A DNA stretch of 64,000 nucleotides. It comes from Octopus vulgaris. Lineage: Eukaryota. Under the pieces are notes generated by a model, which worked only from the letters and a program-made list of their open reading frames with translations, was not told the DNA's origin and did no database searches. Numbering within the stretch: the first letter of the stretch is position 1; each line of letters begins with the position of its first letter. The stretch is from positions 174,282,001 to 174,346,000 of the forward strand of contig OX597816.1 in NCBI GenBank assembly GCA_951406725.2. The letters are read 5' to 3'. Shown here piece after piece: positions 1 through 64,000 of this stretch. Both the position numbers and the translations under genes were made by a program.

Positions 1-1250
1 ATTGCTGTATAATAAATGTTTGACCTGGGTCAAACAAACTGACCCAGTAGGCTCCTCTCATTTGGTGATGGGAGCTGGAGATAGCACGGATATCTGCAAT
101 TTTATAGGACTGTATATACAAGAACACCTAAAAGAAGAGGTTCCCATCAGTCATCTCTGACCTGTACAGAGATAACACAATGGCTATCTCTAGAGGAACT
201 AACAGGTATACCTTTGACAGGCTTAGGAAAGACCTAATTAGCACCCTTAGTTCCATAGGGCTCAAGATAACAATCAATACCCACCTCATCACTGTAAACT
301 TTTTAGATTATGTTAGACCTAGACAGGTCCTACTACAAACCAAACAAGAGATTGTCCTATATCAACACAGTCTCTTGCCACCTGCCTAACATGTTCAGGA
401 ACCTAGTGAAGGGAGTCAGTAGAAAGATCTTGAACCTATCCACAAATCAGGATATTTTTGATGTCACAGCTTCCAATTACAGTGAGGCTCTGGCATCCAG
501 TGAGTTTAAGGACTGCATCTCCTATATGCCGAGCCCTGGCACACATGGAAGGAAACACCACTGTCATTTGGTTCACCCTGCCCTTTTCTCCCAACATTAA
601 GATTTGCATGGGAAGAATTTTTCTTAGATTGGTGGACAAACACTTCACACTTCAGATGTTTGTTTAATAGACATAACTTTTAGTTGTGCACCCAAATTTT
701 AGAGAGCAAAGGACCACGTTTCGGACTTCTCCCATCTTGTGAGCTCTGGGACGAAGACCGTTTGCTCAACAGCAGAAACGACACCAACATTGCAGCCAGA
801 AATGGTGACAACGCCAGCAACAATGAAACCACCAGGATCATGTCCAGGAACAACAGTATTGGCAACAACAACAGTGACACCAGACCTGGAGTTAATGAAA
901 GAAACATTAGTAGTGGTATCACATTCAGTGCACAGACACAGAAATATATTAGTTCAACCAGGGGCCGTTTTAAGCAACATCTGAACTACTGCAGATTCTC
1001 GTTTAAGATACTGGAATGGTACAACATCACATCTATGATCAGCCACATATTGTACTTAAAAGAGAAAGAAACCCATACATAATTAAATGAAAGCTCCTTT
1101 AGCAACTGGGGACTTATATAAATAGGAGCAAACAATGTAAGTGTTGCTTGGCAGAGATAACCAGGATCCTAAAATACTTACTTGATCCAGGGACCCTTTT
1201 AAACTCCAGGAAAGAGGTATTTAGCTCTCATGTAAGGTAATACACATGAC
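1..1250 (+). mobile_element. Degenerate Penelope-like element, Naiad type (RT, thumb, GIY-YIG remnants)
   Basis: Fragments MGAGDS, LYRDN, VNFLD, YKPNKRLSYIN..SCHLP, WFTLPFS, KYISST..FKQH and CKCCLAE..LLNSRKE across several frameshifts. Confidence 0.85.
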
Positions 1251-1300
1251 CCAACAAACCATCCTCAGAGCCGATACATTCATACATACATACATATATT

Positions 1301-1520
1301 CATTTATTCTTTTACTTGTTTCAGTCATTTGACTGGCATACCACCTTAAACGATTTTAACCTAAGAAATCGACCCCCACCAGGACTTATTCTTTGTAAGC
1401 CCAGTACTTATTGTATTAGCCACCCTTGATGAACCACTAAGTTATGTGGATGTAAACACACCAACATAGGTTGTCAAGCAATGGTGGGGTGACAAACACG
1501 GGCACAAAGACACATACATA
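1301..1520 (-). mobile_element. tRNA-derived SINE family A, 3' half
   Basis: Matches the tail of the full copies (TTTTACTTGTTTCAGTCATTTGACTG...GTCAAGCAATG). Confidence 0.85.
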
Positions 1521-1571
1521 TATATATATATGAAAGAAAGTTTGAAACTGCAATTTTAAACATGTTTATTC

Positions 1572-1614
1572 GCTTGACCGGTTTCACTTTTTTTAGTAAA
1601 AGATTGTCAAAAGT
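1572..1614 (-). ncRNA. Candidate minimal hammerhead ribozyme in a PLE pseudo-LTR (variant core UUGACAA)
   Basis: Minus strand reads CUU-UUGACAA-UCUUUUACUAAAAAAAGU-GAAA-CCG-GUC-AAG: stem I CUU/AAG, stem II CUUUU/AAAAG, palindromic stem III ACCGGU. Confidence 0.55.
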
Positions 1615-1820
1615 AAAATGTAAAAGCTTTGTATGAGCTTTGTTGTGTTAAGTACAGATTATCACAAAAGTATTAAAATAAAGTTATACAGTCTTTGATA
1701 ATAATAAAAAAAATTTAAAAACAGTTTACAAGAAAGTATTTAAGACAGTAAGCAGAATGGAACTCCAAAAAGTATTTTGAGTTCAATAAAAATCATGTTT
1801 GTTTGGTAGTATATATAGAC

Positions 1821-1970
1821 ACAGAAGGAGATGTATTCAAGAATTTACAAAAAACTGCAGAGGAATAACTGACCTGTCTTTCTGACATTTTCTGACAAGA
1901 GAAAATGTCAGAAAGACAGGTCAGCCACTCCTCTGCAGTCCCTTGTAAATTCTTAAATATATCTCCCTCC

Positions 1971-1972
<2 letters not shown>
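1821..1972. repeat. Fold-back inverted repeat, 73-bp arms and 6-nt loop
   Basis: 1821-1893 aligns without gaps to the reverse complement of 1900-1972 with 10 mismatches. Similarity resumes beyond the TA tract (TACTACCAAACAAA near 2054-2067 versus 1798-1811). Confidence 0.92.
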
Positions 1973-2055
<83 letters not shown>

Positions 2056-2560
2056 CTACCAAACAAATTTCAGAGAAATTTCCCGCAGTAAAAAGTTACA
2101 ATAAAAAGTTATTGCCAGGAACTTGGGCTCCTAGCTAAACAAAAGCATTGTCCATCTTGTAAAACTATACTGAGCAAAAGTGAAGTGGGTCAGAAGATCT
2201 GACTCAAAGTGCAGGTTTCAGTGCAACAAGAAACATTGTAAAGAATCAGTGAGAAACCAAATACTACTTCGGAAAGGAACCTAGTTTGGTCATAACAATT
2301 TGTCTGGCAAAAAATTAAGAGAAAGTCTTCATTTTTTTTTCTTTTTGTTTGTTTTACAACTGACAGTGTTGGAAATTCCCAAAGTGTTTTTATTTTTCTA
2401 CAAAATGAAACTTGAAATGGCATTTACCAAAAAGAATGAGTATCGAAATAACAGCTAAATCTCCAATAAAGTCTCTTGACACATACCCACACATCTGTAT
2501 GTGAAGCACATACAACACGAATTCTTTGAAAATATCAAAGAAATTTCATGTTAGATACCA
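1905..2560 (+). pseudogene. Degenerate Merlin/IS1595-like transposase fragment
   Basis: Frameshifted QELGLLAKQKHCPSCK...RFQCNKKHCK...LRKGT*FG resembles the Zn-ribbon N-terminus of Merlin transposases. Confidence 0.55.
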
Positions 2561-2567
2561 TTGGAAT

Positions 2568-4205
2568 TTATGGGGAAATAAACCTTGTACTTATAATTTT
2601 GTTATAAAGCGTTCTATAATGTCGTTGGGGATCAATAGATATATTCTTGGATCTCTGAATTCCGATTCCTGCATCGACTCCATATTTTTCCCCTAACCTA
2701 TCATAAAAGACTGAAAAATTATCAAGTTTGTTTTCGAGTACAGTTCTAGTTTTATCTATTTGCTGTTTACAATACACTATGTCATGACTTTTACTCTGGA
2801 GTATGTTAAATAAGACGTCAGTAAAAGAAAAAATGTCACTGAATACCTCTAACAAAAATAAGAAATCAGGAGCTTTTAAAGTGTGTAAGAATCCAATTGC
2901 TGAATTTATGGTGGTCTCATCCCATGCTTCAGGATTTTCAATGATGTGTTCAAAAAGGCTGATTATGAAATTATAATTTTCCTTTGTGGTAATAATAAGA
3001 CGTGAGGAGTAATTCCATCTAGTTGCTGTTGCTTTCGGAAATCTTTTTTTAACAATATTATCTAATGCATTAGTCCTTTTCGGTGATTTCGTAAAAAATG
3101 TACCGAGTCCATTTATTGTAGAAAAAAATATCTTGCATTCTTTCATAGCAGAGCATGATTGTGAAAGAACTAAATTTAGGATATGGGCACAACAATGAAT
3201 AAAGATCGCACATTCATATTTCTTTCTTACTTTTGCCTGTAACCCATTTAGTTGTCCTGCCATTGTAGCGGCACCATCATATGTCTGCGCAATCAATTTG
3301 TTTCCACATTCCCACGTCTCAATGCATTTAAAAACATGTTCAGATAAAGCATTTGCAGATCGATCTGCACTAACATCACTAAAACCGATAAATCGTTCTT
3401 TCGTCACACAGTCTTCTGTAACATAACGTAAAACTGTTGACAGTTGTGAAGATGCTGAGACATCAGATGTCTCATCAACAAGAATAGAAACAAACTTAGC
3501 TTGGTCAATTTCCTTCTGCATCTCATTCAACATAACTTTATGAATTGCTTCGATCAAGTCATTTTGAATTCTGTTCGACAGACCAGTGAAGATAGAAGCT
3601 GTATCTAAATGACTTTCCATTTGTTTGTCATACTTACTGATCAAATAAACGAGTTCTTTATAATTTGCCCGATTATTAGAGCCTTCAGATTCAAAATGAC
3701 CCCGAAACGATAATTCCTGGAGGCCTAAAAAAATAACAACATCGATCAATCGTTGCAGAATGGATCTGTTTCGTCGAACTTTCTCATTATGCTGTTGTAT
3801 GCTTTGATTTTTACGTGCATCTAATTGTAAGTCTATGCGAACATTCCCGAATATTTTAAGGTCTATCAAACATTTTATATGCCTTTGAGAACGCTCGTGC
3901 TTTAGCATAGCCATATGTAAATTATTTAAATCATCATAGCCTTTATCATTCCAAACATTTTTTTCTAAGCCAAAAAGTAAACACGGCCAACAGAATAATT
4001 TATTAAGAGCAACACTTCCAGTTAACCATTTCTTCTTTTCATACGAATTAACCTGAAATTGTCTCGTGAATTTCTTGTTGTAGCTTCGCAAATTAGGTAA
4101 ATTCGGTGTTGGTCTCCCGCGATTTATAATTAATTTTTTCCCATCGAAGTCCCTTTTAGAAAAACTAGTTCTCAAAATATCGTTTATAGCACACATTTCA
4201 CTCAT
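2568..4205 (-). CDS. hAT-family transposase (ZMYM1/DUF4371-like), C-terminally truncated
   Basis: Uninterrupted 545-aa ORF with LFCWPCLLF, LSFRGH, NYKEL, SNRIQNDLI, ILVDETSDVS, QTYDGAATMAG, FIHCCAHILNLVL and TRW; no hATC dimerisation domain. Confidence 0.9.
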   Translation of the reverse strand: MSEMCAINDILRTSFSKRDFDGKKLIINRGRPTPNLPNLRSYNKKFTRQFQVNSYEKKKWLTGSVALNKLFCWPCLLFGLEKNVWNDKGYDDLNNLHMAMLKHERSQRHIKCLIDLKIFGNVRIDLQLDARKNQSIQQHNEKVRRNRSILQRLIDVVIFLGLQELSFRGHFESEGSNNRANYKELVYLISKYDKQMESHLDTASIFTGLSNRIQNDLIEAIHKVMLNEMQKEIDQAKFVSILVDETSDVSASSQLSTVLRYVTEDCVTKERFIGFSDVSADRSANALSEHVFKCIETWECGNKLIAQTYDGAATMAGQLNGLQAKVRKKYECAIFIHCCAHILNLVLSQSCSAMKECKIFFSTINGLGTFFTKSPKRTNALDNIVKKRFPKATATRWNYSSRLIITTKENYNFIISLFEHIIENPEAWDETTINSAIGFLHTLKAPDFLFLLEVFSDIFSFTDVLFNILQSKSHDIVYCKQQIDKTRTVLENKLDNFSVFYDRLGEKYGVDAGIGIQRSKNISIDPQRHYRTLYNKIISTRFISP

Positions 4206-4948
4206 TTTAAAAAAGGCTGCTCTTATTTAAGGACCCACGTGGAAGCGCCGGCGTAAATTTTAAGTCAATTTCAACAAAACGGAAAAATACCCTTTGTTAA
4301 ATTAATTTAAGATTAATTAGCTATTTCTGAAATAAGAAATATAATGTAGATATTTTTGCTTTCAAAACTTTCTAAAAATATGATAGTGCAAACGGATGTT
4401 TTGGATAAAAAATTTCAAACTTACATGCGAAGGCTATTCCAACATTTCAGCTGGCTAAAACAAGAATTATGGGACGGCTCTTGTTCCAGTCAAAATAGCC
4501 AGAGAGCGTGATATGCGATCTAAGCACAGCATGACAAGCCAAACTGAATTTGTCGAATCGCTGAGAGAGAAGGGGGTGACCATTCCTCGTAGTATATCTT
4601 TTAAACAAAGAAAGAGGGAGAAGGGACAAACTATCAAAGACAGAGAGAAGGGACTCATGCTGTCTTCCCAACGCATGACAAGCGATAAATTTATCGAGTC
4701 ACTAAGATAGAGAGAGAGAGAGAGGAAGGAAGGACAAACTAATACAGACAGAGAGGGAGTGTGTATCATGCGATCTTCTAAAAGCATTTATCAAAGCAGA
4801 TGTACGAAGTGGAGACAATATTTCTAAAACAACTGGACGTATTTTCTTTGAAACAAGGAAGGCATGCAGCGCATACCTTGCATTGCTGAGAGTGCACGCC
4901 CCTGTATTAGAAAGACAATAAAGTACATCTTGAGTTTGTTCCACAGTG
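2590..4948 (-). mobile_element. hAT-like DNA transposon, one end missing
   Basis: CpG-richer block containing the transposase and a 5' region with repeated GAGAGAAGGGAC-like motifs; composition changes near 4948. Confidence 0.65.
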
Positions 4949-62735: not shown

Positions 62736-64000
62736 TCAATCTGGTTGCAGGGTAGGTCTATAGTTCTTGTAGTTTGCATAATTCTTATGCATGCAATTTG
62801 GGGAGTGTTCTGAGATCTTGTTAAGGAGAGGGCCTTTGGCGAACAAGATCTCTAGGCTCTCCGAAATGCAAAGGTCACAGCAGGTATGGCCTCCTGTGTA
62901 CGAACGCGCCTTCTGTAGTAGTTTCCACTTGGTCTTGAAGGGGATGGAGTTCCTTTTAAGGTACCAGATGTGGGCGGCGAGGGTAGTTTGGTTGGATTTA
63001 TCTGGTCGCCAGAACGAGTGTGTGTGGGCGTACCAACGGGTCTTAAAGCTGTTTGACGTCATTCCGATGTAGGATTTTCTTTTATCATCAGGGCCTGATC
63101 TTACCTCGCATGTATATACTAGGTCCCTCTGTAGGCAGTTGTTGTTGAGGGGGCAGGTGGTTTTATCAGGGCAGTTGCAATTGCTATCGGACGTTGGATG
63201 GGCCTCGGAAAAAGTAGATATATTAAGTTTTTTCACATTGTTGTTGGCTAGGTTCCTGGCTAGATTGGGCGTGGTAGAGTAGGAGAGTCTAATAGTGTTC
63301 TTATTTAGGATAGTGTAGTACTTATGTTGGGTGGGGAAGTGTTTCTGTAGGAGAGTGAAGAAGATTTTAGCTACAGGTGTAGCGACCTCACGGTTGAAGG
63401 GGGGTTGTACCAGCTAATGTGTCTTCGTCTATTTTTCCTGGGTTGGCGTGGGGCTATACTAGTATAGGTAATCTTATCTTTAAAGCCACTGCGGGCCAGG
63501 GCCTCGTTGTAATAGGGGGCTGCGGCCTTAAAGATATCTTCCGTGGCGGACAGGCTAGAAATTCTAATTGAGACACTTTTTACTAGGTTATCTAATATAT
63601 TTTTGGGGTGGTTGGAATTAATGTCTATATATCTAAGGGATTCATTTGGTTTGTAGTACGGGTAATAAAGTGAGGTTTTTAAGTCGAGGGTGACGTCAAG
63701 GAAGTTAGCTTTGGTTAAGTTGGATTCTAAGGTAATCCTAAGGCCTAAGTTTTTAAAGAAGGTGTAAAGATTTTTCCGGAACCCATCCGTGGTCCTGGGG
63801 TTTATTTTGTGGAGGGCGAAAAGGCCGTCATCGCGGTAAAGACCACCGGAGAGGCCTGTGAATAGGGTCTTCAGCCTATGGAGGATGAAAAGGCCCACTA
63901 GGTCACTTATTTCAGCAGAGTCGTTAGCACCCATGCTGACGTCGAAGGGGGTCACAGATTTTTTGTTGATCCAGTGGGATCCGTCGTGGAAAAGAAAAGT
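62736..64000 (-). mobile_element. Naiad-type Penelope-like element, RT plus GIY-YIG, nearly intact, runs off the window end
   Basis: FDVSMGANDSAEISDLVGLFIL, GLYRDDGL, NFLDVTLDL, SNHP, CNC.....CPL...C, VY..SYIGMT, FKTRW..H..SF, CDLC and LLNK..CMH; one frameshift near 63400. Confidence 0.92.

Follow-up and report, generated by a model that had tools for sequence, protein, structure and literature searches.

Does a hairpin in the Octopus vulgaris genome preserve RNA edits that reverse transcription has written back into DNA? The fold-back in question lies near the left end of a 64,000-nt window, which is the whole stretch of DNA analyzed here (G000:C3:174282001-174346000; the genome searched comprised 2.8 Gb), and positions below are those of the window unless otherwise given (Table 1). 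Its two arms, 73 bp each, pair at positions that sum to 3793 around a 6-nt loop. They differ at 10 sites, all transitions, as the original prediction had counted. At eight of these, in the clusters that it had singled out (AAA/GGG, ATAA/GTGG), the left arm has A where the reverse-complemented right arm has G (1823, 1826, 1851, 1852, 1853, 1865, 1867, and 1868); the other two are 1833 (left G versus A) and 1838 (left C versus T). Folding the stretch as minus-strand RNA turned 9 of the 10 mismatches into G-U pairs within a continuous helix, again as predicted, with a z score of -24.3 for a folded stretch that includes the (TA)n run.

Table 1. Features of the fold-back, the insert that carries it, and the neighboring elements
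Feature	Position	Strand	Remarks
In-window part of 5,373-bp insert	1..2587	-	Whole insert is G000:C3:174279215-174284587, starting 2,785 bp left of the window
LINE 3' UTR fragment, ~300 bp, with (GAT)n tail	~C3:174279215-174279515, outside the window	-	Left end of insert
Dispersed PLE-like repeat copy	1530..1893	-	Inserted at (TA)n; right-hand (inferred 5') end variably truncated, often with inverted second copy
Hammerhead-like motif	1573..1614	-	Read by eye; criteria from an excerpt of PMC4209133
Left arm	1821..1893	-	Truncated end of dispersed PLE-like repeat; 3' arm on minus-strand RNA
Loop of head-to-head junction	1894..1899	.	6 nt
Right arm	1900..1972	+	Inverted second copy of same PLE-like repeat; 5' arm on minus-strand RNA
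Expanded (TA)n and last ~20 bp of inverted copy	1973..2067	+	Pairs with 1797-1817
Merlin/IS1595-like transposon remnant, decayed	2064..2587	+	Inferred 5' end of insert; cut at 2587
hAT-type (DUF4371) transposase, N-terminal part	2588..4205	-	Split by insert; C-terminal part left of insert in L099

The repeat that supplies the arms

The left arm forms the right-hand end of a dispersed repeat, the match to which covers window positions 1514 to 1894. Two genome searches for this repeat gave 593 and 2,400 candidates, 40 of which were scored in each. Its copies are flanked by (TA)n microsatellite, stop at variable points on the right-hand side, carry arms on both strands in 15 of 53 loci, and show a family divergence of 4.6% (877/19,058 columns). 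Penelope-like insertions often carry an inverted 5'-truncated copy (excerpt of PMC8557442), and the likeness to such insertions, as the available text of PMC8557442 and PMC4209133 describes them, extends to variable truncation, the inverted copy beside it, microsatellites as targets, and a hammerhead-like motif of minimal form. In contrast, no PLE open reading frame (ORF) was found attached to the repeat, and helix II of its motif is noncanonical. The motif is a U3/A8 core variant with an extra base after position 9 and a palindromic short helix III, and it is without the usual G10.1-C11.1 pair; Rfam reported no hammerhead at this place, only sub-threshold hairpin matches. In the family loci with about 1.5 kb of flank, a tblastn search with the PLE-like proteins of the window gave matches in L040, L045, and L046 only, at inconsistent positions. 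Truncation and inverted copies fit and the motif does so in part, but no G10.1-C11.1 pair, Rfam match, or attached PLE ORF was found, which leaves the PLE label plausible but not proven. To this extent the predicted minus-strand PLE pLTR beside the hairpin stands, with the correction that the arms are themselves part of the repeat.

Elsewhere in this family, L018 is truncated farther out, in a TG-rich extension of the repeat, and has an inverted duplication of 464 bp there (L018:2451-2914). Two fragments within the window, at 307-1082 (plus strand) and 62736-64000 (minus strand), presumably encode PLE-like reverse transcriptase and GIY-YIG domains, judging by motifs; they match each other at 44% by tblastn and gave no Pfam hit.

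The right arm had been assigned to the start of a Merlin ORF, and this assignment did not hold. The Merlin-like remnant begins only at about 2064, and none of 28 loci of the Merlin-like repeat matches the arm, their upstream sequence being different. Three of these loci have a DDE-type ORF, and the one checked against Pfam matched PF12762.

Polarity and strand of the changes

We polarized each mismatch against 27 family copies of the parent repeat. At each of the 10 sites, 23 to 27 of the 27 copies hold the A/T state, and every derived state is a change from A:T to G:C, which rules out C-to-T deamination. The eight right-arm changes and 1838 are A-to-G changes on the minus strand, while 1833 is A-to-G on the plus strand. 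A search pattern allowing either base at six sites had three matches in the genome, with the C states in this right arm alone, and among the copies scored no second subfamily holds the G states; together with the family polarity, this removes both the C-to-T and the two-subfamily readings. A fold-back pattern with a gap of 8 to 38 had zero genome matches because the gap here is 44 nt, and a wider-gap pattern found four places, of which two are fold-backs of the family without edits and one is unrelated, the fourth being the focal hairpin. A 26-mer spanning the loop occurs once in the genome at up to one mismatch. The search for a master copy with the same head-to-head junction accordingly returned this locus alone, the sister locus described below being deleted there.

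The repeat search also found a sister locus, L040 (G000:C18:6207661-6213151; here C18), that is about 99% identical including the flanks. The two loci share a segment that begins 2,785 bp left of the window and extends to position 2587, and a flank search at an identity of at least 99% found two places in the genome only, C3 and C18. C18 has T at 1838, 1925, 1926, 1928, 1967, and 1970. Its stretch matching 1940-1942 is rearranged, with no C there, so that three of the nine sites are polarized by the family alone. C18 carries G at 1833, as does C3; this exception therefore predates the duplication, and all nine changes private to C3 fall on one strand. They comprise one T>C in the left arm (1838, beside the older A>G at 1833) and eight T>C, or A>G on the minus strand, in the right arm (1925, 1926, 1928, 1940, 1941, 1942, 1967, and 1970). 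Positions 1855 and 1858 were left uncounted, as their states are common to both arms and the sister is ambiguous there. Neither an even split of the changes nor CpG decay describes this result. The original prediction had offered, as a second option, that the left arm was copied from an ancestral right arm and underwent clustered C-to-T deamination; the family copies and the sister locus refute it.

In the assembled C18 haplotype, left-arm positions 1855-1897 are missing and about 1932-1955 are rearranged, and the insert on C3 differs from C18 by 0.84%, whereas the host hAT element differs from its siblings by 0.23%. This haplotype was therefore not the direct template, and an allele with an intact hairpin is assumed. 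The affected stretch of C18 (L040:1769-2110; G000:C18:6212291-6212632) has an apex deletion and a rearranged right arm, and short insertions resembling nearby sequence occur in its (TA)n run, as expected of an unstable AT-rich palindrome.

Outside the hairpin, C3 and C18 differ by 43 substitutions in 5,111 bp, a comparison that leaves out two junction columns belonging to the target; of 1,439 T, 4 show T>C. Other repeat copies allowed 20 of the flank substitutions to be polarized; 11 fell on C3 and 9 on C18, with T>C making up 1 of the 11. Of the 50 adenosines in the arms, 9 are thus changed, against 4 of the 1,439 outside. The binomial probability of nine such sites is 2e-14 at the flank rate, 7e-9 with the six directly confirmed sites only, and 5e-7 at the full per-site rate of the family. 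The pattern is real in the assembly sequence and far beyond chance. We accordingly give next to no credence to an ancestral right arm with left-arm deamination, to two subfamilies, or to ordinary mutation. All ten differences do belong to a common class, A>G and T>C making up 16.6% and 14.5% of family substitutions, but the left-arm state is that of the family copies and the sister locus, the C states occur in the right arm alone among the three pattern matches, and chance has a P value of at most 5e-7.

The changes are also clustered, with five neighboring pairs within 3 nt (P = 0.016 for the right arm), and they are unevenly divided between the arms (8 versus 1; P = 0.06). As predicted, none of the nine adenosines has a 5' G (A at six, U at two, and C at one), while 11 of the 50 arm adenosines do; this avoidance has a P value of 0.085 for both arms and 0.041 for the right arm. 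Clusters made by metazoan ADARs average about nine sites in about 50 nt, with U or A favored and G disfavored on the 5' side (excerpt of 10.1101/2020.01.19.911685). The neighbor context agrees with ADAR, although it is weak evidence alone.

A probable LINE retrocopy and its RNA strand

The insert on C3 splits a long ORF (2568-4226) that encodes a DUF4371 hAT-type transposase, both halves of which flank it. Eleven other hAT copies were examined, and in every one the site is empty; no target sequence was deleted. The two halves differ from their closest copies at 5 of 2,185 bp; C3 is therefore the copy, and a young one. The hAT family (window 2588-4905, L104-L115) is itself very young, 13 of 40 scored places being identical over 305 bp. 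In L104 the C-terminal part reads as an open frame, and the family is likely still active.

The left end of the insert falls exactly on a minus-strand (GAT)n tail; the tail on C18 is 4 nt shorter. The 300-bp repeat that ends in this tail was examined in 28 copies, and in two of them (L123 and L142, mutual duplicates) it forms the 3' UTR belonging to a reverse transcriptase frame; the frame in L142 matches RVT_1 (PF00078, E = 5e-15). These two copies, about 49 kb apart on G000:C12, are about 92% identical including the LINE and its flanks and represent an older local duplication. Its sequence motifs suggest that the LINE may belong to the RTE clade, active members of which are reported from octopus in excerpts of PMC9115989 and PMC13282606. 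At the right junction, where the insert is cut inside the Merlin-like remnant, there is a microhomology of 2 to 3 bp with the target; no clear target-site duplication was seen (0 to 2 bp, coincident with the microhomology). Relative to C18, the insert has no intron-sized gap, its indels outside the hairpin measure 1 to 33 bp, and no gene is known in the segment. The RNA step is thus marked neither by a clear duplication of the target nor by a lost intron.

The 5,373-bp insert is nevertheless a likely retrocopy: nothing would make a duplication at the DNA level stop at a LINE tail where the target is without a homologous element. The copied RNA was thus likely the minus strand, and this strand is named independently of the base changes. 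The mobilizing agent was likely a LINE that copied a 5.4-kb read-through RNA, not a Penelope-like element; the PLE-like repeat provided the duplex only and did not mobilize the insert. The strand named by the LINE tail is the one on which the nine private changes read as A-to-G, an agreement that alone amounts to a one-in-two test.

The first option of the original prediction, A-to-I edits fixed by reverse transcription, is thus well supported by the 27 family copies, the unedited sister locus, and retrocopy hallmarks that point to a minus-strand RNA. We consider it probable that the nine private changes, their bases taken from the assembly sequence alone, are ADAR edits of the minus-strand RNA that were fixed by LINE-mediated 5' transduction into the hAT element.

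The same bases could in principle have arisen at the cDNA level, by reverse transcriptase misincorporation (G opposite U under skewed dNTP pools) or by ADAR editing of the cDNA in an RNA:DNA hybrid. In model hybrids the DNA strand, too, is open to editing by ADARs (excerpt of PMC12925331), and if the sister locus is set aside, 1833 fitted this route as well as 1838 fitted RNA editing. However, minus-strand RNA yields plus-strand cDNA, for which A>G on the plus strand is expected, and the nine private changes are T>C on that strand; moreover, 1833 predates the copy, and the changes end at the arm ends. The orientation of the LINE tail largely refutes this route, and a separate, later origin of the hairpin on C3, which might rescue it, is argued against by the fold-back common to C18; we regard the route as very improbable.

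Another reading places real changes at another date, either on an unseen source allele or later on C3, when repair used an RNA or cDNA template or a DNA hairpin was processed in an error-prone way. The assembled C18 haplotype was not the direct template, and the hairpin is unstable, with deletions and short templated insertions. The arms are also more alike than the family divergence predicts, which makes arm-to-arm copying probable. But repair and conversion copy existing alleles and cannot make nine new one-strand A>G states, the C18 rearrangements show no such bias, and other fold-backs of the family have mixed substitution spectra. We consider a different date quite improbable.

Control hairpins and assembly error

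Long-read errors occur at inverted repeats, and the changes could be an artefact of the assembly, in which C was put for T either by miscalled bases in the second arm of a tight hairpin or by polishing that used edited RNA reads. Clusters of same-type mismatches have entered reference genomes before, as G-to-A changes in Sanger traces (excerpt of PMC2873906). A survey for further edited hairpins covered 216 records with 1.34 Mb of sequence. Hairpins with arms of fewer than 40 nonrepetitive columns or gaps of more than 300 bp were dropped, and 10 records of the focal locus were left out and the window used instead. Among the 153 distinct hairpins, the focal one ranked first with a score of 7 (nine same-strand transitions and one other mismatch in 70 columns); the next four scored 4, and none of the 152 others scored higher. 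The strand-biased excess of the focal hairpin was thus absent from these 152. In a further 800 kb, 98 hairpins had wobble-type mismatches on the two strands in numbers of 435 versus 478.

No clusters were found in 13 near-perfect tight hairpins of that further sequence, and the hairpin of the sister locus is clean. These controls indicate that the assembly does not as a rule put such errors into hairpins. In addition, the arms align without indels, and the affected strand is the one that the LINE tail predicts. We consider an artefact improbable.

Several other candidates were rejected as edited. L024 (1234-1953) has a strand skew of 0 versus 10 (uncorrected P = 0.002), but its changes are dispersed, with 14 transversions and A>G mixed with C>T. 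In L195 (7938-8761), seven T/C mismatches in one direction are dispersed over 404 columns, alongside seven transversions, and are unpolarized; L054 has seven T>C, but no fold-back of the repeat. A second, long-range inverted pair within the insert (74% identity, about 2.8 kb apart) showed no excess, its one T>C, at 1402, being polymorphic in the family.

Precedents, proposed history, and source locus

In plant mitochondria and kinetoplastids, retroprocessing returns edited RNA states to the genome by reverse transcription. There, the editing is organellar and of the C-to-U or U-insertion type, and the parent gene is replaced; here, a new nuclear copy was made. The closest likeness is to L1 in cultured human cells, in which 3 of 235 induced insertions proved to be pseudogenes whose T>C changes, attributed to ADAR, clustered within inverted Alu pairs only (excerpt of PMC11702581). 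As described there, a LINE copied host RNA in trans, and clustered A-to-I changes of the double-stranded part only reached DNA. Those cases were induced in human culture and concern Alu pairs in mRNA 3' UTRs, whereas the present one is natural, probably inherited, and from an invertebrate; its RNA would be a nonspliced read-through ending in the (GAT)n tail of a LINE, and its editing substrate is a PLE-like head-to-head fold-back. In avian retroviruses, ADAR-type changes in an inverted repeat were likewise recovered after reverse transcription (PMC12925331, a review, in excerpt); that viral RNA is copied by its own enzyme with nearly 50% of adenosines changed, compared with a presumed nonviral host transcript and 18% here. 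APOBEC3 footprints in endogenous retroelements are also one-type mismatch clusters left by a deaminase during retrotransposition, but they arise by C-to-U changes on cDNA, read as G-to-A, are not tied to hairpins, and have the opposite polarity (excerpt of PMC2873906).

The mechanism is in print for human L1 in culture and for avian retroviruses, and the present locus seems to be a case of it that arose naturally and was probably inherited. We found no report of such a case in an animal nuclear genome, including in the available text of PMC7703385, PMC9148063, and PMC11167929, in a search of limited journal coverage that does not prove priority. RNA editing is usually regarded as transient and nonheritable, and the excerpt of PMC7703385 makes this statement for cephalopods.

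We propose the following history. From a promoter upstream, minus-strand transcription of a C18 allele whose fold-back was intact would have crossed the hairpin and reached the old 300-bp LINE 3' end. Of the roughly 50 adenosines in the duplex of 73 bp, ADAR would have deaminated nine. A LINE protein supplied in trans may then have recognized the 3' end and used a nick in the hAT element for priming, slipping on the (GAT)n tail, after which its reverse transcriptase would have read inosine as G and stopped after 5.4 kb, giving a 5' transduction. The event would have taken place in the germline or early embryo, because the insert is present in the assembly consensus. The edited insert is probably a fossil with no function.

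If the bases are real, the locus is a natural case of edits turned genomic, in which the source, target site, RNA strand, and timing can be read. If the proposed history is true, nascent or intergenic RNA is a substrate of ADAR in the germline or early embryo, and a hairpin that contains inosine does not stop the reverse transcriptase of a LINE. The locus also offers a recipe for a genome-wide screen, in which young LINE-tailed transductions are compared with their sources for strand-specific A-to-G clusters in hairpins; one example gives no measure of how common such events are. Coleoids combine high ADAR activity, dense hairpin-rich PLE-like fold-backs, and active LINEs, yet that their germline retrotransposition regularly writes RNA edits into the genome is a tentative idea that we hold to be unlikely. 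Were it general in coleoids, such loci would record past ADAR activity in the germline as dated fossils, and retrotransposition would be a route of A-to-G mutation with a possible share in the reported A-to-G excess at cephalopod editing sites.

A candidate for the origin of the read-through RNA is a minus-strand single ORF of 384 aa that lies 8.4 kb upstream of the source locus (L103:8596-9747; G000:C18:6221596-6222747) and encodes a hydrophobic N-terminal stretch and lysine-rich repeats. A search among longer proteins, the only length class covered, found no homologue, and there was no credible Pfam family. Just left of the source locus, on the plus strand, L102:6437-9685 contains exons of a gene for an LPMO_10 (PF03067) chitin-active protein.
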